Virus record (IMG/VR): IMGVR_UViG_3300045988_154803
Reading direction: 5' to 3' (one strand)
Source: a virus
Lineage: Duplodnaviria; Heunggongvirae; Uroviricota; Caudoviricetes
DNA length: 48,828 nucleotides
In this document: in pieces, positions 2,820-48,828 of the stretch
How the letters are laid out: every line of letters begins with the position of its first letter
How positions within the stretch are numbered: position 1 is the first letter of the stretch
Notes under the pieces: model-generated
Told to the model about the DNA's origin: nothing
Databases searched by the model: none
The model's input: the letters and a program-made list of their open reading frames with translations, nothing else
Program-made: the position numbers and the translations under genes

Positions 2820-2852
2820 TAAAAAAAAAGCCCCGCCGAAAAAGGCAGGGCT
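2820..2852 (-). terminator. Intrinsic terminator (hairpin plus U9 on minus strand) immediately upstream of holin RBS
   Basis: Minus-strand reading gccctgcc-ttttt-cggcggggc followed by nine T; only ~13 nt before holin start. Confidence 0.65.
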
Positions 2853-3193
2853 TCATAAAGCAACAAATTACGCGGTAATCGCTTAACGCAGTTTTACTAC
2901 GTTAAATGAAACACTACACCCAGTTACCATCTAAAACAAGGTTTTCTCATAAAAAAACCTTCAAATCGTGGTTAATCGATCAATAAAAAAACAATACTCA
3001 ACTTTTTGCCAAACGAACATCCCGGCCAGGACTTCCATAATATTCGCCGATATGCCACTGCTTAAGTTGAGTAATCTTCTCCAACTTAACTCCCATAGAG
3101 TCCAGTTTCTGCCATGTTTTCGGTTGTATGTGCTTCATTATCCGCTCTGAATATCTGAATACTGCTCGTAATCGCATGGCTTCTCACTACAGC

Positions 3194-5573: not shown

Positions 5574-5872
5574 GCCACAGCCCCTCTCAACGGCTTAACT
5601 TTGGCTAATAAGGTGTTAAACAACATGGAGTTAGGATTCATGCCAAATGGCAATTCCGGTTTAGCGGAGTAGTACAGGCAACCATTTATTTTCCTGGTTG
5701 TTATCTGTCCTTCGGCAACCATGCTTCTCAGTCTGCAACGCATAGAGTTCTGCGACACACCAATGTGCTCCGCGATTACGTCCACTTTTGAACATGGGTG
5801 ATCGGTCAGGAAATTAATCACATCTTGGGGGTTAATAATTTTGCGTTTCATTGTCGAGGCGTCCTTATACAT
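5570..5872 (-). CDS. Small winged-helix-like DNA-binding protein (candidate regulator)
   Basis: 100 aa; helix-turn-helix-like VIAEHIGVSQNSMRCRLRSMVAEG; preceded by AT palindrome promoter. Confidence 0.4.
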   Translation of the reverse strand: MYKDASTMKRKIINPQDVINFLTDHPCSKVDVIAEHIGVSQNSMRCRLRSMVAEGQITTRKINGCLYYSAKPELPFGMNPNSMLFNTLLAKVKPLRGAVA

Positions 5873-5897
5873 TTATATAAATATATAATTCTATATA

Positions 5898-5917
5898 CGG
5901 CGGGAGACGTCCCGCCG
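5898..5917 (-). terminator. Hairpin terminator after DUF3560-like gene
   Basis: cggcggga-gacg-tcccgccg perfect 8-bp stem followed by AT-rich palindromic tract. Confidence 0.45.
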
Positions 5918-6996: not shown

Positions 6997-7112
6997 CAGA
7001 TTTCTCCGGTTTAACCAGGGCGGGTATCGCTCGGTTTCGGGTATAACCTTAGGAAATTTTTTCCCACCTGTAAAGCGCTTTTTATATAAATCTATAATTA
7101 TATATTTATAGA
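6997..7112 (-). promoter_or_regulatory. Conserved promoter/5' leader cassette, copy A
   Basis: Near-identical to 16461-16580 and 48667-48785; ends at the start codon with GGAG RBS; contains TATAATTATA palindrome. Confidence 0.6.
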
Positions 7113-7165
7113 TTTTCGATGTTACCGATGTCTACACACCATCAAAACAGCTCAAAATGACACTT

Positions 7166-7543
7166 TTACTCTCTTCGCTTTTTCAAATAGTCGACAACAT
7201 ACGCCCTGGCTTTTGCCAGCTTCCGGCGATACTGTCTGAGACTAAGAGAAAGGGCGTGGGCTTTATCAATATGCGGTGCATTTATGTCGAGGCCCCGAAT
7301 CTCCCACGCCCCGTATTCAATTCGGACAACCAGCGCCGCAGTCTCATCAACTACCGTGAGGGCCGTCACCGCTCCCTCGATACTGGTTTCCAGTGAGTCA
7401 TTTGGTGCGCCGCCCCCTCCGGTAAACTGGCAGCGCGTAACCATCATCATTTCTAACATCGACGCGAAACCGCTACGGGCGTTGCAGCCATTGCGCACCC
7501 ACAGCGCCCATAGCTCAAACAAGCTATCCAGATCGCGTCTCAC
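7166..7543 (-). CDS. Possible Q-like antiterminator (Phage_antitermQ-like)
   Basis: 125 aa; N-terminal LFELWALWV resembles LERWGAWA start of small Q-family proteins (recalled); sits immediately upstream of leader cassette A. Confidence 0.4.
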   Translation of the reverse strand: MRRDLDSLFELWALWVRNGCNARSGFASMLEMMMVTRCQFTGGGGAPNDSLETSIEGAVTALTVVDETAALVVRIEYGAWEIRGLDINAPHIDKAHALSLSLRQYRRKLAKARAYVVDYLKKRRE

Positions 7544-10830: not shown

Positions 10831-10842
10831 CCCGCTTATATG

Positions 10843-10948
10843 ATTATAGATTTATATAATTATATAAAACGCTTTTCATCAGCCAAAAAGTTGGTTATGC
10901 TTACCTCGTTCTATAAATATAGATTTATAGAATTATATAACCAAACAC
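10843..10948. promoter_or_regulatory. parA upstream region with AT palindromes (candidate centromere/operator)
   Basis: Perfect 16-bp palindrome TTATATAATTATATAA at 10843-10858 and a related repeat CTATAAATATAGATTTATAGAATTATATAA. Confidence 0.5.
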
Positions 10949-11617
10949 ATGGAGTCTCGACAAATGACTATCTCTGTAGGTATTTTCAACGGAAAAGGCG
11001 GCGTAACCAAATCAACAATTGCCCGTGCTTTAGCAGTTGCTTATGCAAAGGCTGGCTGGAATGTATGCCTGATCGATATGGATGTGCTTAACGGAACGGT
11101 AACGCGTTGGGTACAACGCAGAATGGCCAACAATATCGAACCAGCAATCGCGGCGCAGCCGTGCGGCACACCATCACAAGTCCAGAAAATCATCGAATCA
11201 GAAGTATACGACCTGGTTATCGTTGATGGCGGTGCCTACGCATCTGAATCAGTACCGAAGCTCTCTGAATTTCTGGATATGGTTATTTTGCCAACCAGAT
11301 TCTCTACCGATGACCTGGAAACCACCGTTAACACAGCTCACGGCATCGTTAAAAAGGGTGTACCAATCAAGAAAATTTGCATGGTGTTTTCCGGCGCGGC
11401 TGAAAACGAAGCTGACTATATTGAAGCCCAAGAGTACCTGGCTAATACGCCATACTTTGTTGTCGATAAGTACATTCCCCACAAGCCAGCTCTGAGCAAA
11501 GCTCAGGATAAGGGCTTAAGCCTCATTGAGTGCTCATACGTTGCGCCACGCAAAAAGGCAGACGACGTTATTCAGGGGATTATCAACCAGCTTGAGGCTC
11601 TGACTACTGCCGCGTAA
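10949..11617 (+). CDS. parA: ParA-family partition ATPase (small, type Ib-like); likely start at 10964
   Basis: Deviant Walker A GKGGVTKST; ~217 aa without N-terminal HTH. Confidence 0.85.
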   Translation: MESRQMTISVGIFNGKGGVTKSTIARALAVAYAKAGWNVCLIDMDVLNGTVTRWVQRRMANNIEPAIAAQPCGTPSQVQKIIESEVYDLVIVDGGAYASESVPKLSEFLDMVILPTRFSTDDLETTVNTAHGIVKKGVPIKKICMVFSGAAENEADYIEAQEYLANTPYFVVDKYIPHKPALSKAQDKGLSLIECSYVAPRKKADDVIQGIINQLEALTTAA

Positions 11618-11629
11618 TATATAATTATA
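11618..11629. repeat. TATATAATTATA palindrome between parA and downstream RHH gene
   Basis: Perfect 12-bp palindrome. Confidence 0.6.
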
Positions 11630-11660
11630 GTTTTATAGATTTATATAAGAGGGGATACAC

Positions 11661-12129: not shown

Positions 12130-12153
12130 ATAAAAAAGCCCCCGAAGGGGCCT
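12130..12153. terminator. Hairpin terminator (U-run on minus strand, A-run on plus)
   Basis: gcccccgaaggggc stem-loop flanked by A6 on plus strand. Confidence 0.5.
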
Positions 12154-12725
12154 AATCGCTACTTGCTGCTAATGTTTATCGTCACATTCAGAGCGTTATC
12201 AGTAATCTTCCAACCCTCCCCATGTGGCGTAAACAAAGCTCCAGTAACAACGATAAAAATACACATACAGTATTTTTTCATTGTATGGCCCTTACAGGCC
12301 GTTTCACGGCATCCCCACCGACGAAAACAACGCGAGAGCAAGCACGGCTGCTTGTGCTTGCATGTACGGCAACGGAGAATCCTCCCCTAAAGTCGGTGCC
12401 CGGGTGCGAATCGGCGGGAAGGTCCACAGGTATTTTACGATTATTTTAAGATTAGTAATAGGAAAGAAATTAAACGAAAAAACTCGTTTATTTTCACAAA
12501 ATCAGTAACCTACCCACAATCTGTGAGTTTGCAGGCACAACAAGAACCACAATTTTTTGAAGCATAATAGTGGACTATTATTACCTTTTGGGTAAAATTA
12601 ACTTGCTGCTTGTGCTTGCGTGGTTGTTTATACAACAACGTAATGCTGAAAGGACCGCGAATCCGATCAGCACGAAAGAACCGTCCTCAATAGGGCGGTT
12701 TTTTTGTTTCTGCCTACCAATAAAC

Positions 12726-12773: not shown

Positions 12774-12873
12774 TGCGCCATTGGTGGACACTTTCCGAGC
12801 CGTAGCAAAATCTACGGCCGGGATTGGAACCCCGATAATCATCATGGCGCATACCGCGTTAGCGGTTTTTTTA
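12774..12873 (+). ncRNA. Candidate small RNA (~100 nt) ending at intrinsic terminator
   Basis: Candidate promoter TTGTCT-N17-TATTGA; internal hairpin ccgtagcaaaatctacgg; terminator ccgc-gtta-gcgg + T7 at 12854-12872. Confidence 0.3.
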
Positions 12874-13037
12874 TGCGTAAAGCACTGCTACACCCAAATT
12901 ATGGTGGGGCGTGCGGGGGAGTCGTAAGACTCGCCGGATTCCATGGTGACCGGTAGTTCCAACCCTGTACGTCTCACCACCCAATGATTGGAACCAGACG
13001 GTGGTGAGTATCCTTAACCTTTAAGGGAACTATCACC

Positions 13038-16079: not shown

Positions 16080-16460
16080 TTACTTAACGAGGAATAAAAA
16101 TGGTTTATTGTTCGGCGGTGTAATCGGGGCTGGCTCGCTTTTGCTCATGCGATCAGTGTACCAGGCCAACTCCTTGTCAAAGTAAGCCTGATTAAAATAG
16201 GCCATGAATGTAGTTTCAAATCCATAACGACCGCTAATACGCAGCATCTGATTGCCGTTCTCTGTTTCCAGATATACCTGGGCACGTTCCTGATTCTCCT
16301 TCAGCCAGGTTAAAGCCTCATCGCATGAGGACACACGATACTCATCATCGTAGCAGTCATCGATGCGGCTTGAGGAAGAACGGCAAATCACGCCAACAGA
16401 ACCAGCCAGGATAGTTTGAATTTTAAGGAAAGCGTTTTTGCGGATTTTAATCATGCTCAT
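16080..16460 (-). CDS. Hypothetical protein (first gene after leader cassette B)
   Basis: 126-aa ORF starting exactly at end of conserved leader. Confidence 0.5.
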   Translation of the reverse strand: MSMIKIRKNAFLKIQTILAGSVGVICRSSSSRIDDCYDDEYRVSSCDEALTWLKENQERAQVYLETENGNQMLRISGRYGFETTFMAYFNQAYFDKELAWYTDRMSKSEPAPITPPNNKPFLFLVK

Positions 16461-16580
16461 CGGGTTATCTCCGGTTTAACCAGGGCGGGTATCGCTCGGT
16501 TTCGGGTATAACCTTAGGAATTTTTTTCCCACCTGTAAAGCACTTTTTATATAAATATATAATTATATAATTCTATGAGC
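16461..16580 (-). promoter_or_regulatory. Conserved promoter/5' leader cassette, copy B
   Basis: Near-identical to copies A and C; palindrome TATATAATTATATA at 16556-16569. Confidence 0.6.
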
Positions 16581-16582
16581 AC

Positions 16583-16607
16583 AAAAAAGCCCCTTTGCAA
16601 CAGGGGC
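16583..16607 (-). terminator. Intrinsic terminator after higA-like gene
   Basis: Minus strand gcccc-tgttgcaaa-ggggc followed by T6. Confidence 0.55.
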
Positions 16608-17514: not shown

Positions 17515-17805
17515 CTATTTTTGTGACTTTACTCCTGGCATATGGACTTCCCAGCGACGAATCCCCATAGCTGCGCAAAAATCAGCCACATAATTCAATC
17601 CCGCCCATTCGCGGATACCACCACGGGCTTTTTCAATGAAAACGGCAATCCCTTTTTTATTGAGAGCAAAAAGCCGCCAGCTTTTTGTCACTTCGTCCTG
17701 GGTAGCCACAACACAAGTGAAAGCTCCCATGCGATACAGGTCCAAGAACTCTTTGCGTGTTTTGCGTACAAGTTCCATAACAAACCTCATATTTGCATGT
17801 TTCAA
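17515..17805 (-). CDS. Hypothetical protein
   Basis: 96-aa ORF adjacent to origin region. Confidence 0.35.
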   Translation of the reverse strand: MKHANMRFVMELVRKTRKEFLDLYRMGAFTCVVATQDEVTKSWRLFALNKKGIAVFIEKARGGIREWAGLNYVADFCAAMGIRRWEVHMPGVKSQK

Positions 17806-18101
17806 ACATCTGTTTTGTTATCAATGAAGATTAACCCTAACCCAGCGAAGTAACACAGCAGCGCCCAGGCTGCATACGGAATGCTGGATCTGGATGTGGA
17901 CTCCTTTAACATCTGCCAGTTGCGAACATTGCGACTATCTTTTAAGCCTAGTTTTTTGGCCAACTGCGAGCCGCTCATTCCGGTCAGGCCAATGACTGCC
18001 CGAACTTCTCCACATGTAGGAGATTCCCATTCATCCGCTTTTTTTAAACAAGCCGGATTCAACATTTTTAAAACAGTATCTTTATCCATAACCATCTCCA
18101 T
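17802..18101 (-). CDS. Hypothetical protein with HTH-like segment and hydrophobic C-terminus
   Basis: VIGLTGMSGSQLAKKLGL; C-terminal AAWALLCYFAGLGLIFI. Confidence 0.35.
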   Translation of the reverse strand: MEMVMDKDTVLKMLNPACLKKADEWESPTCGEVRAVIGLTGMSGSQLAKKLGLKDSRNVRNWQMLKESTSRSSIPYAAWALLCYFAGLGLIFIDNKTDV

Positions 18102-18732
18102 TTATTATATCTACGATGGTAGGAAATCTTTTCCTATGTGGCAATAGAAATTTACTACATTGCGTATAAGACAAGTTTTCTATGTCTAATAGGAAATGAT
18201 GTTTCTTACGTTTTGTCGCGTTCTGATGGCTACTGTGTGCGTATTTATCGACGTTTATTGATAAGGCCCGCCCCTTCCTCCTGCAAAGCTCGGCCGTAGG
18301 CCTTATTTCGGCCTTATATAAATTGATTTTGTATAGTTCGAAACGCGCCGTTTCGAAAAGGATGATCAGGCTGCTCCATGCCTCCGGCAAGTGCCGGAGG
18401 AGGTATATTTGAGCGTAGCGACTCGAACCGGCGCGAGCTTTAGCTCGCTGCAAGGGCGAACATATTCACAGGCAAAGCCTGCGTAAGTTAAATAAAGAAA
18501 GTCTTAATAAAAGAAAGTGATTTTGCATTTATTTGTTTAGTGCATCTATTATAAAAAACCATTTGCATATACATATCAAAACTGTGGATAACTTTATTAG
18601 CCGATGCCTGTAAAGACGATATTTTTGCTGTGTTCAGGTTTAGAGAAAATTAATTTAGACTATTTTTTGAACAGATATTTTATTGCGACGTAGATAATCC
18701 TCCGGTAAAACCGGATTCATCATTCAGGTGGG
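18102..18732. other. Candidate plasmid replication origin (AT-rich, DnaA box, GC hairpins) downstream of repA
   Basis: DnaA box TGTGGATAA at 18583-18591; hairpins cgaaacg-cgc-cgtttcg, ctccggca-agt-gccggag, gcgagc-ttta-gctcgc; no credible ORF. Confidence 0.5.
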
Positions 18733-42092: not shown

Positions 42093-42653
42093 TTATTCTT
42101 CCTGCTTAATAAATCGGGATTCCTGGAGCGCCTGAAGCGCAAAATTAATCTCGTCTTCAATAATGCGTTCGATCTCCCTGGCTGTTTTGCCTTCACAACG
42201 GGGAGCTGCTCTTGGAGCAATACTAAATAAGCGGCTACGCAATTCATTAGCTGCCAGAAATGCATCATCCCTGACCGCATCTTTAGCGATGAGAGAGCCT
42301 TCCTTTTCTTCAAATTCAAGGCGTTTCAGCTTTGCCTGATAAATTTTTTCTGCGGTCTTAGCCTTGTTGAATTGCACCGCAACACCGGAAGTACCACCAG
42401 CTAATCCGGCATCATCAGCGGGTAACTCTGGTTGTTCCGAAGATATCCCATGCCCTCTTTTTCCATTTTCAGCAGATACCTCACGACCAACCTGTCGGCT
42501 CGCTTCATAAGCCGCACTGGCTTTATCAAAATCCAGCTTGCCGCTTTTCAGCACTGGAATGCGACCGGAACGACAGAGCTTCGTAACCATTGCCGGAGAA
42601 ATACCTTTCCGGCGAGCAAACTCTGACTTACTGACGATGGCCATTACTTGCAA
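42093..42653 (-). CDS. Terminase small subunit (N-terminal HTH)
   Basis: 186 aa; MAIVSKSEFARRKGISPAMVTKLCRSGRI HTH; upstream of large subunit. Confidence 0.6.
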   Translation of the reverse strand: MQVMAIVSKSEFARRKGISPAMVTKLCRSGRIPVLKSGKLDFDKASAAYEASRQVGREVSAENGKRGHGISSEQPELPADDAGLAGGTSGVAVQFNKAKTAEKIYQAKLKRLEFEEKEGSLIAKDAVRDDAFLAANELRSRLFSIAPRAAPRCEGKTAREIERIIEDEINFALQALQESRFIKQEE

Positions 42654-43234: not shown

Positions 43235-43791
43235 TTTTTAACCGCCATAACACAACAGGTTAAAGAAAACTGTTTAACTTATTGATACTAAAAGAGAAAA
43301 ATGACGATCTTTTTACTCATAAAAAATCACACAAACCAGCATAATCATCTGATTTTATTAAGTTTTTATAAGTAAAAAGGATCTTGAGATGGTGTTTTGG
43401 TTAAAATATTGGATGTATTTGCATGATTTATAACGATTTTTATCAGAACAACATCACATTGGTTAAAGATCTGCGCGTATCTTGATGATCTAAAAGAAAA
43501 TTTTCTACTTTCTTTTTACCAGCACAAATACAGCAAAAAATCACGTTTTCCCGATATTTTTCAATGAGATGAGTAAATTTCTTTTACCGCAACTTTTAAC
43601 CTAACTTTTTTCACGTTTAGCTAGCCGAACATCGGGGTTCGAATGACCCGCATCCAACGCTTTTGGCCAGAAGGACCCAATTCTGCCGGACGATGAAACG
43701 ATGCTCGTGCTCCCCCACAGACAGCCAGCGAGCGACGCTACAGAACACAGTGAATACACTCTGCATAACAACACCATCAACCACACGATGA
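43235..43791. promoter_or_regulatory. AT-rich 557-bp non-coding region upstream of packaging operon (candidate late promoter and/or cos site)
   Basis: No credible ORF; AT-rich with homopolymer runs; lambda-type terminase implies a cos site nearby. Confidence 0.3.
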
Positions 43792-45907: not shown

Positions 45908-46524
45908 ACCTCCCCAGCCAGCAATGCGGATACAAATCCGATATAGCTGCCATTATCATCAACATAACGAGACACCGCGCAGTCAAAACGATCCGCTTCC
46001 TCATCCGTTGCCGGGATTTTATGACCTCCAAATGACAGGTACTGAACTTTTACGCCTGATTTGGCCTCATCCTTCTCAAATGGGATATCCATACCCTCTG
46101 TGTCATCGTAGACCGCCGCACTCAATAAGTTATCCAGTTCGCGCTGAGTAAAACCAATTGAGTCCAGAGCAAAATCATCGGCCGCAAGATCTGCAAGCTC
46201 CGCGCTTAACAGCTCTTCATCCCAACCAGCATTCAGCGGAATACGGTTGTCGGCCAGACGATATGCCTTCTTCTGATTCTCCGTTAGCCCTTCCAGAACA
46301 ATGCAGGGAACATCATCCATCCCCAACTGAGTGGCCGCAGCAATTCGACCATGACCAGCAATTACAACGTTGTTCTCGTCTATCAGGATCGGATTAGTCC
46401 ATCCGTACTCCTGTATGCTGGCAACAATCTGATCTACCTGCTCCACGGAGTGTGTGCGAGCGTTCTTTTCATAACCAATCAACACAGAAAGTGGTAAAGA
46501 AACCACATTAAGATGTTTTGTCAT
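45901..46524 (-). CDS. ParB-like nuclease domain protein (paralog 2)
   Basis: ...TNPILIDENNVVIAGHGRIAAA...; overlaps start of fusion gene (coupled). Confidence 0.8.
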   Translation of the reverse strand: MTKHLNVVSLPLSVLIGYEKNARTHSVEQVDQIVASIQEYGWTNPILIDENNVVIAGHGRIAAATQLGMDDVPCIVLEGLTENQKKAYRLADNRIPLNAGWDEELLSAELADLAADDFALDSIGFTQRELDNLLSAAVYDDTEGMDIPFEKDEAKSGVKVQYLSFGGHKIPATDEEADRFDCAVSRYVDDNGSYIGFVSALLAGEVC

Positions 46525-46669
46525 GCCGTTTATCCGCTAAAATCCCCTCGCTTGTGCAAGCAAGTGGGCCTCGGTTTGTATCCACGGCACCCTGTGGGTA
46601 TGAATGACTGTCGTCAGGTCGCAACTGACGGCGGTCGCCCACCTTCCAGTAATAAAAAAGCCACCAGCA

Positions 46670-46695
46670 TTAACTCCACAGCGAGCTGGAGTTAA
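46670..46695. repeat. Perfect 9-bp-stem hairpin in intergenic region
   Basis: ttaactcca-cagcgagc-tggagttaa. Confidence 0.6.
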
Positions 46696-46766
46696 TGAGG
46701 CAGCTTTGGTTTGCGCATTATCGCAGCCCCTGGTAAGCACAAGAGCTGCTGTAATGCTAAAAAAAC

Positions 46767-46788
46767 AAAACCACCCGCAGGTGGTTTT
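46767..46788. terminator. Bidirectional intrinsic terminator
   Basis: aaaccacc-cgca-ggtggttt with T-runs on both strands. Confidence 0.6.
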
Positions 46789-46816
46789 ATAAATAAATAG
46801 CAAACAGGTATCTGCA

Positions 46817-47260
46817 CTAATCAGATAAACCAAACTTCTTCTTTGCCAATGACTTGAGAAGTTCTACACCAACATCCTTCATAACAGCCAATGGCTCATT
46901 GCTAATTTCTTTTAGTCTAGCGAAAACATCTTTGCTCTCTAGTGCACAGGCAAAATCCTGTCCCTCTGTAGTCAATCTAATATCTACATCAACAGTCCTC
47001 ATTCCTGCCAAAAAATTAACATAGCCAAGACGCAGAGGATCACGCGTTTCCATCTTCATATTGCTGATAAAACCTTGCTCAATCAATTGCATATAATGAA
47101 ACATGCCCTTTTCTGAGGCTATATCAAACCCCGCGTCTCTTAGTTGATTTACTGTTATGAACGTGCTTTCTGAATCCAAAAACACAGTCAGCATCTTTTT
47201 TAGATAATCTAGATCGGTGCGCATTTTACCCTCCTTAAATGGAACGCAAATGTTACACAA
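46817..47260 (-). CDS. Hypothetical protein
   Basis: 147-aa ORF; probable start at internal MRTDLDYL. Confidence 0.4.
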   Translation of the reverse strand: MCNICVPFKEGKMRTDLDYLKKMLTVFLDSESTFITVNQLRDAGFDIASEKGMFHYMQLIEQGFISNMKMETRDPLRLGYVNFLAGMRTVDVDIRLTTEGQDFACALESKDVFARLKEISNEPLAVMKDVGVELLKSLAKKKFGLSD

Positions 47261-47311
47261 CCTTTAAAAAAAGACACATTGTTTTATTTATGCCTCATTT
47301 TAATCGACCAA

Positions 47312-47464
47312 TTACTGCCTAAATTTATCAATAAATAATTGCTCCCGCTTACGCCGAAAAGCTCTCTGCGCCACTAAGATGCGCCACAGGACACCAGCGA
47401 TAACCACCAGCGAGATACAAAAACACACGGCCACAACCATCAGAAAAATGCCAACACCATTCAT
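47312..47464 (-). CDS. Small hydrophobic peptide (50 aa; TM helix plus basic tail)
   Basis: Hand-translated MNGVGIFLMVVAVCFCISLVVIAGVLWRILVAQRAFRRKREQLFIDKFRQ; ATGA overlap with upstream ORF; below ORF-track cutoff. Confidence 0.3.
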   Translation of the reverse strand: MNGVGIFLMVVAVCFCISLVVIAGVLWRILVAQRAFRRKREQLFIDKFRQ

Positions 47465-47667
47465 GAAACTATCCATTCTTCAATGAATATCTCCAGTAAT
47501 GTCAAGAGATACGCCGTCCCCAGCGCGGTTCCTACCGATATAGCTAAGACAAACCTCAAAGATAACGAGGTGTCTTTCGCTTTTCTCCAGACGTAAGCGC
47601 CAGCCAGAAATACCAACAAATCTCTTATTGGAAGCGGAAACCAGAACAAATCACTCGGCAAGTCCAC
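47461..47667 (-). CDS. Small membrane protein
   Basis: 68 aa, two hydrophobic segments. Confidence 0.35.
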   Translation of the reverse strand: MDLPSDLFWFPLPIRDLLVFLAGAYVWRKAKDTSLSLRFVLAISVGTALGTAYLLTLLEIFIEEWIVS

Positions 47668-47669
47668 GG

Positions 47670-48125
47670 TTATATCCTTCCATTCATTTTTATCGGATGA
47701 CCAGATAGCCTTACGCAGTTGAGCTGTAAAGCTCCGGTATCAACTAAATAATCAACTAACATGATTAGAGATTCATATTCAGCCAGACAGCTAACCTGAC
47801 GCATTCGACCGCCGTTGTTCTCCAGAATGTCGGCCACCTTTGCAGCCAACTCGCTTAGACAGGAGAACTTATTCCCATATATCGTTTTATACTCGCGCTT
47901 CTGGCATTCTTCGGCTTGCGGCTGGTTATCGAGAGCTATCATCGACCGATAACTATCAAGGAAGTCCACAATCTCATTCAGGCACTCTTTGGCTGCCTCA
48001 TCGTGACTTTTTCCGTATGCTTCATGGAGGACTTTCATCCTCATCATTGCTCCGTCACACATAATCGAAAGCGCGTAAAGCACATCACTAATCGCCATTT
48101 CTTTTTTGGTGCTTGTCGAAGGCAT
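47670..48125 (-). CDS. Hypothetical protein
   Basis: 151-aa ORF with AGGAG RBS. Confidence 0.45.
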   Translation of the reverse strand: MPSTSTKKEMAISDVLYALSIMCDGAMMRMKVLHEAYGKSHDEAAKECLNEIVDFLDSYRSMIALDNQPQAEECQKREYKTIYGNKFSCLSELAAKVADILENNGGRMRQVSCLAEYESLIMLVDYLVDTGALQLNCVRLSGHPIKMNGRI

Positions 48126-48150
48126 CCCATGTTCTCCTTTGTCTGGATGT

Positions 48151-48178
48151 AAAAAAGCCCCGGCAATTGCCGAGGCTC
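48151..48178 (-). terminator. Intrinsic terminator ~25 nt upstream of next gene start
   Basis: Minus strand gcctcggcaattgccggggc followed by T6. Confidence 0.55.
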
Positions 48179-48199
48179 GTTGTTCGTTATCGTTACGGT

Positions 48200-48400
48200 T
48201 TAATGCTCGCGTCGTCCGGCGACAACTTCGGATTTGTATTTCAGATCGCCCAGCAAGAATTGCAGTTTAAGCATCTTTGCCGCCGTGTAGTTCCCTGATT
48301 CCACAACCTCTTTCATGAGGTCATAAACGGCCGCAACATCATCAGCCAGGAACTCTTTACGTTGCTGCTCAGTCGCACGTTTGAAGGAAATACGCATCAC
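48200..48400 (-). CDS. Small hypothetical protein
   Basis: 66-aa ORF coupled to upstream gene. Confidence 0.35.
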   Translation of the reverse strand: MMRISFKRATEQQRKEFLADDVAAVYDLMKEVVESGNYTAAKMLKLQFLLGDLKYKSEVVAGRREH

Positions 48401-48666
48401 TCATCATCTCCTGCCGCACATACAACCTCACAAAAAACATCAGCGGAATGTTTCTTTTTGAATGAATGGCGCTCAAAACCGCACTCAATATCAGGCGCAA
48501 AAACATCCACCACATACGGTCTTTCAGAATGTTTGTTTTCCCAACGATAAACCGTAGTGACGTTGAAATGTTTTAACGCTTCACGGAACTCAACGCTGCC
48601 AGTCAGGTTTTTTGAGGTCAGGTATTGCAGGAGGTTTTTTACTACTTCACGGTCTTGTACTTTCAT
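48397..48666 (-). CDS. Hypothetical protein (first gene after leader cassette C)
   Basis: 89-aa ORF starting exactly at end of conserved leader. Confidence 0.45.
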   Translation of the reverse strand: MKVQDREVVKNLLQYLTSKNLTGSVEFREALKHFNVTTVYRWENKHSERPYVVDVFAPDIECGFERHSFKKKHSADVFCEVVCAAGDDE

Positions 48667-48785
48667 CGGGTTATCTCCGGTTTAACCAGGGCGGGTATCG
48701 CTCGGTTCCGGGTATAACCTTAGGAAATTTTTTCCCACCTGTAAAGTACTTTTTATATAAATATATAATTATATAATTCTATGAC
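48667..48785 (-). promoter_or_regulatory. Conserved promoter/5' leader cassette, copy C
   Basis: Near-identical to copies A and B; palindrome TATATAATTATATA at 48762-48775. Confidence 0.6.
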
Positions 48786-48828
48786 ACTTGCCAGAGAGCA
48801 TCATGCAATTGGATACCTCCATTGCACT
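48771..48828. repeat. Terminal overlap identical to 52-109
   Basis: Direct comparison. Confidence 0.9.

Follow-up and report, generated by a model that had tools for sequence, protein, structure and literature searches.

Three terminator-bounded modules of small genes behind a predicted promoter cassette in a p-p47-type phage-plasmid

Six small genes lie side by side on the minus strand at positions 46,817-48,666 of the IMG/VR virus record IMGVR_UViG_3300045988_154803, a 48,828-nt sequence assigned to the Caudoviricetes that is referred to here as the window. In order of transcription they are designated gp89, gp66, gp151, gp68, gp50 and gp135, and they directly follow a predicted promoter and leader, cassette C. 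The question raised by this locus is whether the block holds early anti-defence or host-takeover genes, as an initial annotation had proposed, or serves some other part of the phage programme. The reading favoured here, with moderate confidence, is that these accessory genes form the promoter-proximal end of the long lysis, packaging and morphogenesis unit of a phage-plasmid of the p-p47 type. As it stands, the block amounts to ORFans of a kind usual in phages, at a site usual for accessory genes. Loci of relatives are given L-numbers (L001, L015 and so on), L015 and L018 being diverged relatives.

All six predicted open reading frames (ORFs) were found on the minus strand where they had been placed, and the six are real genes. 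The lengths first listed (89, 66, 151, 68, about 50 and 147 amino acids, aa) were corrected to 89, 65 or 66, 151, 68, 50 or 54, and 135 aa. The 147-aa version of the last gene depends on a TTG start that is less likely than the ATG at 47224, which stands behind TAAGGAGG, gives 135 aa, and is also the start chosen in RefSeq and seen in every homologue. The gene of about 50 aa encodes 50 aa from the ATG at 47464 or 54 aa from the ATG at 47476, and gp66 encodes 65 aa from the ATG at 48397 or 66 aa from the GTG at 48400. The genes had also been described as separated by intrinsic terminators; terminators do cut the block into three modules (gp89-gp66, gp151-gp68-gp50, and gp135) but do not stand between every gene. 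Within the modules, gp89 overlaps gp66, gp151 abuts gp68, and gp68 overlaps gp50.

The position of the first terminator bears on how the block would be expressed. Only gp89 and gp66 precede it, and the other four genes lie behind it. This strong intrinsic terminator, T1 (48155-48178, minus strand, -18.8 kcal/mol), has a 10-bp stem with 7 GC followed by a U-run and is nearly sequence-identical in the diverged relative L015 (7949-7972). T1 ends 30 nt upstream of the start of gp151, which leaves no room for a promoter between the two. The four genes after T1 would need read-through and would appear together with the late genes. A weak hairpin with a run of 7 U after gp50 (47265-47296, minus strand), predicted with RNAfold and uncalled by the terminator scan, may be a leaky terminator. 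The second strong intrinsic terminator, T2 (46765-46790, minus strand, -15.4 kcal/mol), stands directly after gp135. Beyond it, a non-coding leader of approximately 240 nt (46525-46764, minus strand) precedes the gene for a ParB/Srx protein and holds a long terminator-like hairpin with a U-run (46651-46707, minus strand, -27.5 kcal/mol) as well as further hairpins. The leader is more conserved than its flanking genes, even in L015, with a few compensatory changes among four sequences of two lineages. A search of positions 46480-48828 against Rfam at a relaxed threshold returned sub-threshold chance matches only.

The cassette at the head of the block, which the initial annotation had already recognised, is one of three 122-nt copies in the window (A, B, and C) that are 87-100% identical. 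Cassette C (48667-48784, minus strand) ends at the ATG of gp89 and is composed of an AT-rich array of 8-bp units, a -35 hexamer TTTACA, a 17-bp spacer holding the inverted repeat TGGGAAA-N3-TTTCCTA, a -10 hexamer TAAGGT, a leader of approximately 45 nt, and a GGAG ribosome-binding site. The features common to all three cassettes are the AT-rich array, TTTACA, the 17-bp spacer, TAGGAAA-N3-TTTCCTA, a -10 hexamer TAWGGT, the leader of approximately 45 nt, and GGAG. Across relatives the first, second and sixth bases of the -10 hexamer (T, A and T) are constant and positions 3-4 drift, and the promoter scan calls TTTACA-17-TATGGT in L015. The cassettes are predicted, from these sequence features, to be sigma-70-type promoters with an operator-like inverted repeat in the spacer. 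In relatives, 40 cassette copies precede three genes only: a DUF3560 gene, a gene for a 126-aa protein, and gp89 or a derivative of it. All 21 loci recovered from IMG/VR came from the p-p47-type family, and the leader was absent in an exact-pattern scan of one genome per species. A predicted outer helix of the leader RNA was not conserved between cassettes or lineages, and no structure is claimed for it.

What the cassettes drive bears on when they act. The unit behind cassette A contains the lysis genes and that behind cassette C the packaging, head, and tail genes, and early expression of the cassettes is not supported. Together, cassettes A-C head almost all lytic functions, and no other conserved promoter was seen for the lysis or the packaging, head, and tail genes. 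Both units also carry terminators: the cassette C unit has T1, T2, and T3 close to the promoter, and the cassette A unit has a strong intrinsic terminator upstream of the holin genes (2827-2854, minus strand, -20.5 kcal/mol). The pre-holin terminator is kept in L015 (3719-3744), and expression of the lysis genes thus also seems to need terminator read-through. A putative late-promoter motif common to the pre-holin gap and to the gap upstream of the second ParB/Srx gene and the terminase genes (TTTTTATGAG...) was considered and found unconvincing.

Several further observations concern the cassettes and their surroundings. Matches to the inverted repeat number 8 in the window, compared with 0.86 expected. 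The copies of TAGGAAA-N3-TTTCCTA in the cassettes are at 7050-7066, 16515-16531, and 48721-48737, and a fourth, perfect copy is at 18120-18136. A promoter-like site, TTGCCA-17-TACCAT (18144-18116, minus strand), has this fourth copy in its spacer. The 95-aa ORF a short way downstream of the site (about 17802-18089) contains a motif resembling a helix-turn-helix (HTH), and its product is a candidate regulator that would control both its own gene and the lytic promoters. Arrays of the 8-bp AT-rich unit (TTATAKAW) were located at 1162-1209, 5857-5902, 7075-7119, 10836-10948, 11617-11656, 16539-16586, and 48745-48790; they make up the upstream half of each cassette, both flanks of parA, and two further intergenic sites. 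A single DNA-binding protein may serve both the partition locus and the lytic promoters, as has been reported for SopB of phage N15. Directly upstream of cassette A is the gene for a 125-aa protein (phrog_5285; 7166-7543, minus strand), which is placed as Q is relative to PR' in lambda and has no match to the Q family.

Module 1 combines an expendable gene with a core gene. The product of gp89 (48397-48666, minus strand) is a soluble protein of 89 aa belonging to phrog_6143, and large protein searches found it confined to the p-p47-type phage-plasmid family. It is under purifying selection relative to its relatives, with a ratio of non-synonymous to synonymous polymorphism (pN/pS) of 0.09-0.25, and its N-terminal portion of approximately 40 aa is kept in a 97-aa homologue in L015. 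In many relatives gp89 has been lost by an in-frame deletion that fuses its first 8 codons to gp66 to give a 73-aa protein; such fusions occur on hundreds of contigs (for example L003, L006, and L030; protein clusters P0074, P0075, and P0079). The frequency of this deletion indicates that gp89 is dispensable in nature, and gp66 is always kept. The start of gp66 (48200-48400, minus strand; phrog_6621) overlaps the stop of gp89. Its product is basic (pI 9) and without a predicted membrane segment, is at least 98.5% identical in 56 of 56 PLSDB plasmids that carry it, has a pN/pS of 0-0.21 indicative of purifying selection, and has a 64-aa homologue in L015. gp66 is a core gene of the family. A type II toxin-antitoxin pair was considered for gp89 and gp66 and rejected: no toxin or antitoxin match was obtained in Pfam, NCBIfam, or PADLOC, and the promoter is the shared cassette and not one of their own. 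The sole facts suggestive of such a pair are that the two genes overlap and that gp89 is often lost where gp66 stays.

Module 2 evolves fast at the protein level. It begins with gp151 (47670-48125, minus strand; phrog_14707), a family-specific soluble protein of 151 aa with an N-terminal helical hairpin, a variable middle, and some 70 aa at the C-terminus that form a conserved domain. The homologues in the same slot of L015 and L018 are 251 and 323 aa long with the N- and C-terminal parts conserved, and in a common 99-aa allele the C-terminal domain is replaced, with the junction exactly at the start of gp68. Outside the p-p47-type family a single homologue was found, a 94-aa protein that consists of the C-terminal domain alone. 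Its gene stands in a phage that has Q, with holin-proximal, probable lysis genes on one side and the terminase genes on the other. Two apparent distant matches to gp151, P0052 and P0055, were discarded as eukaryotic repeat proteins. The AlphaFold model of gp151 was unusable (mean confidence, pLDDT, 46.8), and the sequence gave a weak match resembling a winged HTH (DUF7343, E = 0.03). A profile-profile comparison of the gp151 and gp135 families showed no relation.

The other two genes of module 2 are predicted to encode small membrane proteins to which gp151 would be translationally coupled. gp68 (47461-47667, minus strand) has a GTG start and is without annotation in GenBank and RefSeq records. 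At least one segment is clearly hydrophobic by hydropathy; a second membrane helix is suggested only by reading the sequence by eye. gp50 (47312-47476, minus strand, with the 54-aa start) is a predicted single-pass membrane protein with a basic C-terminal tail and a pI of 11.4; its ATG at 47464 overlaps the stop of gp68 as ATGA, and the MD N-terminus of the 54-aa form is common to L018. Homologues of gp50 are present in all lineages (50 aa in L018; 55 aa and unannotated in L015). Holin, antiholin, and spanin identities were considered for gp68 and gp50 and set aside, as no match to these families was obtained, no canonical lipobox was recognised by eye, and the lysis cassette is elsewhere (1325-2807). 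In gp151, non-synonymous and synonymous variants numbered 13 and 6, compared with 23 and 43 in five neighbouring genes (Fisher p = 0.016). For unique alleles of gp151, gp68, and gp50 pooled, they numbered 26 and 15 against the same 23 and 43 (Fisher p = 0.005).

For gp68 and gp50 the possibility that they are chance non-coding ORFs had to be weighed. gp68 was not called by the Prokaryotic Genome Annotation Pipeline (PGAP) or by GenBank submitters, its exact sequence is absent from a collection of 15 billion proteins, and pN/pS is 0.5-1 or higher. Against this, the gp68 ORF is intact in every relative examined, including all of the E. coli type, its start codon is kept in two different upstream junction contexts, the ATGA overlap couples it to gp50, and homologues with 47-48% identity and the same hydrophobic pattern occur in diverged relatives, the 47% identical one in L018 being called as a gene. 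That any of the six, these two in particular, is a chance ORF is scarcely credible.

Module 3 consists of gp135 alone (46817-47224, minus strand), a low-GC gene for a DUF2513-like winged-helix protein of 135 aa. Its match to DUF2513 (PF10711) reaches 19.4 bits, below the gathering threshold of 29.6 (E = 0.0014), and aligns residues 4-110 with positions 3-96 of the 100-position profile. The match to phrog_585 has E = 9.5e-26, and PGAP names the orthologue in RefSeq a DUF2513 protein. In the structure model the topology is that of an HTH with a beta-hairpin wing; Foldseek matches had E-values of 0.07 or worse and TM-scores of about 0.4. In topology gp135 resembles winged-helix regulators (MarR, HxlR, PadR, and TubR; Foldseek E of at least 0.07), but MarR proteins have no counterpart of its extra, highly conserved C-terminal helix (EPLSVIKDVGVELLKSYAKKKFGL). 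Selection on gp135 is purifying (pN/pS 0.13-0.27).

gp135 is a horizontally acquired, moron-like insert in a swap slot. It shows several of the features by which morons are recognised, namely patchy presence, a terminator of its own, a deviant GC content (39%, compared with 45-50% in its neighbours), and presence in unrelated phages. It is present in the window and in L001-L004, and an unrelated phrog_1935 gene occupies the slot in L005-L007, L015, L018, L022, L027, L030, and L031; since most relatives, including the diverged lineages, carry the phrog_1935 gene, gp135 is the replacement. Homologues with 49-81% identity occur in Citrobacter, Edwardsiella, Pantoea, Pectobacterium, Serratia, Hafnia, and E. 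coli, and in every context inspected they lie after a spanin (Rz) gene and before the terminase. A Q antiterminator is encoded upstream of the homologues in Citrobacter and Pantoea, and the E. coli context gave a faint Q-family match only. These prophages have three different terminase types. A terminator stands directly after the gp135 homologue in prophages L008-L010 and L013, and in L011 and L012 the nearest hairpin is approximately 60 nt downstream. In four contexts a -10-like hexamer (TAACAT, TAAAAT, TACATT, or TAATAT) lies 25-30 nt upstream of the gp135 ATG, without a convincing -35 hexamer and uncalled by the promoter scan.

Searches for function returned little. Against Pfam, PHROGs, NCBIfam, and PADLOC the six proteins matched only PHROGs without assigned function and, below threshold, DUF2513. 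The initial description of the genes as motif-less accordingly holds for five of the six, which belong to no family of assigned function, and is modified for gp135 by its weak DUF2513 match and its membership of phrog_585. No structural or housekeeping family was matched in the profile searches. No known anti-defence family was matched by any of the six in Pfam, NCBIfam, and the functional PHROGs, searched without a dedicated set of anti-defence hidden Markov models (HMMs). The PADLOC defence models gave zero matches at E <= 1. Nothing significant was found among PDB sequences for gp135, gp151, or the family profiles of both, and no match to Q or N antiterminators was obtained for the six block proteins or for the scanned proteins near the cassettes.

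Under the accessory-segment reading, transcription would start at cassette C, taken as a sigma-70-type promoter with an operator-like repeat and with a leader common to cassettes A and B, and the polymerase would meet three to four terminators before it reached the ParB and methyltransferase genes, the probable cos region, and the terminase genes. gp89 and gp66 would be the only products made without read-through, and modules 2 and 3 would be expressed with the late genes by antitermination or read-through, the polymerase started at a cassette being either made resistant to terminators or able to leak through them. The block products would be non-essential and would affect the host, competitors, or timing rather than serve as parts of the virion or of replication; gp68 and gp50 could be a membrane pair with exclusion or envelope effects, and gp135 could be a DNA-binding regulator. 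The block is not a free-for-all hotspot, because gp66, the gp151 family, the gp50 family, and the N-terminus of gp89 are conserved family-wide.

Several points weigh against this reading. The start site, the timing of the cassettes, and the efficiency of the terminators are all deduced from sequence. No antiterminator was identified, and the product of the 125-aa gene upstream of cassette A has no match to the Q family. The putative -10 hexamer before gp135 is weak, and independent expression of gp135 as a moron is conjectural. The excess of non-synonymous change comprises few substitutions and may reflect relaxed rather than diversifying selection. Finally, should the inverted repeat be an operator for a repressor, the cassettes could fire as soon as infection begins, which would make true early genes of gp89 and gp66.

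This last point leads to the explanation first proposed, in which the block encodes anti-defence or host-takeover proteins that are made first after infection. The location is indeed accessory and promoter-proximal, directly behind a regulated promoter, and position is all that the early reading had drawn on. DNA-modification genes flank the block, an MT-A70 methyltransferase gene upstream and a ParB-methyltransferase gene downstream. The genes are small ORFans of narrow distribution, alleles are replaced within the block, the non-synonymous to synonymous ratio is raised in gp151, gp68, and gp50, and in a cell without repressor the operator-like repeat in the spacer would leave the promoter free to fire at once. 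However, of the genes described as first behind a shared, clearly regulated promoter, only gp89 and gp66 come before the strong and conserved T1, and gp89 is often deleted. The same type of promoter drives lysis and virion genes, and in lambdoid phages the late operon is where relatives of gp135 and of the gp151 C-terminal domain are found. No anti-restriction, anti-CRISPR (Acr), or other anti-defence match was obtained in Pfam or NCBIfam, nor any PADLOC match. A late protein could still be anti-defence, acting at the next infection, if it were packaged in the virion, but nothing here supports packaging. We regard early anti-defence as rather unlikely. A different explanation takes gp89 and gp66, and possibly gp151, as a lytic timing switch, antiterminator, or late regulator in a layout like that of lambda N or Q. 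It would account for gp66 being core, nearly invariant, and basic, and for the succession of a promoter, a conserved leader, a short coding region, and a strong conserved terminator ahead of approximately 25 kb of late genes without another recognisable promoter; moreover, no Q- or N-family protein was found among the scanned proteins near the cassettes. On the other hand, gp66, gp89, and gp151 have no similarity to antiterminator or to DNA- or RNA-binding families, no arginine-rich motif was seen when the sequences were read by eye, and there are equally plausible candidates in the 125-aa gene, the 126-aa protein encoded behind cassette B (16080-16460), and the 95-aa HTH protein. We judge a regulatory role for these genes a genuine but unlikely alternative.

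A role of gp135, gp151, or both as DNA-binding helpers of cos recognition or packaging would fit the modelled winged-helix fold of gp135, the weak DUF7343 match of gp151, the recurrence of their relatives between lysis and terminase genes, and a terminase of the GpA type, which acts at cos. Most family members, however, have the same terminase and no gp135, carrying the phrog_1935 gene instead, and for this reason such a role is unlikely for gp135. In addition, its own terminator and low GC content are typical of morons, gp135-bearing prophages have at least three terminase types, and the common 99-aa allele of gp151 has another sequence in place of the C-terminal domain. Taken together, a packaging role is quite improbable. 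A bolder version of the story can also be told, in which the block is no passive cargo but a working part of an undescribed lytic switch made up of triple operator-bearing cassettes, conserved terminators close to the promoters, gp89 and gp66 as a new type of timing or antitermination factor, and gp151, gp68, and gp50 as a new, late, membrane-associated counter-defence or superinfection-exclusion device that would benefit the progeny or the lysogen; we hold this to be a speculative and unlikely combination.

The accessory-segment reading can be compared with known systems. Lambda bor and the cargo of Stx phages are morons or accessory genes in the junction between lysis and terminase genes of lambdoid late operons. 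The block likewise falls within the late unit between the lysis genes and the cos and terminase region, and gp135 is patchy among collinear genomes, carries a terminator of its own, deviates in GC content, and has homologues in that very junction. The present element differs in being a plasmid-prophage with a contractile tail like those of P2 and Mu and in having a second promoter cassette before the block, and gp66, the gp151 family, and the gp50 family are conserved family-wide rather than patchy. The antitermination units of lambda, PR'-qut-tR' (Q) and pL/pR-nut-tL1/tR1 (N), resemble the cassette units in that the first transcribed stretch behind the promoter is conserved, a strong terminator follows shortly, and a very long operon of lysis and virion genes lies beyond it; the terminators here are kept in diverged relatives. 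Unlike them, the phage-plasmid has three promoter-leader copies and two protein genes between promoter and first terminator, no Q or N protein was detected and no boxA or boxB was recognisable, and antitermination is inferred.

Late-expressed DNA-modification and anti-restriction functions are also known from temperate phages, as in mom of Mu and the dar operon of P1. The MT-A70 and ParB-methyltransferase genes similarly lie in the late unit beside small uncharacterised genes, and late expression would be compatible with protection of progeny DNA or with loading of proteins into virions, but the block has no homology to Mom, Dar, or Ulx proteins. T4 Imm and Sp and HK97 gp15 are small phage membrane proteins that block superinfection or modulate lysis. 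gp68 and gp50 are comparable, by analogy only, in being small, hydrophobic, co-translated, fast-evolving, and non-structural; they are without sequence similarity to such proteins or to holin or spanin families.

The gene map of the region has been corrected by an unannotated membrane gene, a new start codon, a division into three modules, and the distinction of core from swapped genes. If the terminator-gated reading is true, the segment would be a handle for dissecting the timing of late expression in the p-p47 family, and if any module acts on host defences or competing phages, it would represent a new family. The more interesting biology lies around the block: a triplicated, operator-bearing cassette, AT-rich repeats that also occur at the partition locus, conserved terminators, and the conserved, structured leader of the ParB gene.

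The sequence of the window is that of a phage-plasmid, a circle of about 48.7 kb. Positions 52-109 are an exact repeat of 48771-48828, an overlap from circular assembly, and positions 1-51 are an Illumina Nextera adapter with index and P5 tail (minus-strand reading CTGTCTCTTATACACATCTGACGCTGCCGACGA...); the overlap and the adapter contamination together reduce the element to a circle of that size. Over the queried region the window is 99% identical to Yersinia phage vB_YpM_39. Plasmids of approximately 48 kb matching the window are present in 72 of 5,426 complete E. coli genomes, and 212 of the 215 matching places in complete E. coli genomes are on plasmids. A relative in RefSeq has RepA, ParA, a HigBA-type toxin-antitoxin pair, an XRE/S24 repressor, a c4/isrK-ant immunity region, and a complete myovirus gene set. 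The family is almost certainly the p-p47 family of E. coli phage-plasmids, since CP032086, a member listed in the preprint that describes that family, is also among the matches found here (bioRxiv 10.64898/2026.08.19.745698). The preprint, dated 2026, reports that p-p47 phage-plasmids can carry resistance genes and is silent on the six-gene block (bioRxiv 10.64898/2026.08.19.745698). A literature search found no paper on vB_YpM_39, DUF2513, or the RefSeq protein accessions. Phage-plasmids of the p-p47 type are common in clinical and animal E. coli, and the family numbers roughly 118 members.

Read along the minus strand, an early operon divergent from the repressor is followed by cassette A, the DUF3560 gene, and several small genes. 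Then come the strong pre-holin terminator, the lysis cassette (two holins and a GH108 endolysin), a tRNA gene, the MT-A70 methyltransferase gene (60-647), which is the gene upstream of cassette C, and cassette C itself. The block is followed by the ParB/Srx gene, the ParB-methyltransferase gene, a gene for a 239-aa protein, and an AT-rich non-coding gap of 557 nt (43235-43791). Beyond the gap are the second ParB/Srx gene, the genes for the small (terS, 42093-42653) and large (terL, GpA-type) terminase subunits, and the portal, head, tail, and fibre genes. Because the terminase is of the GpA type, the gap is probably the cos region. Elsewhere in the window, matches above the Rfam gathering score were obtained for ryfA, isrK, and the P1/P7-type C4 antisense RNA (12132-12427, 12799-12872, and 12897-12984). 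They lie upstream of an ORF6N antirepressor gene and make up a P1-like ImmI module in a phage-plasmid that is not P1.

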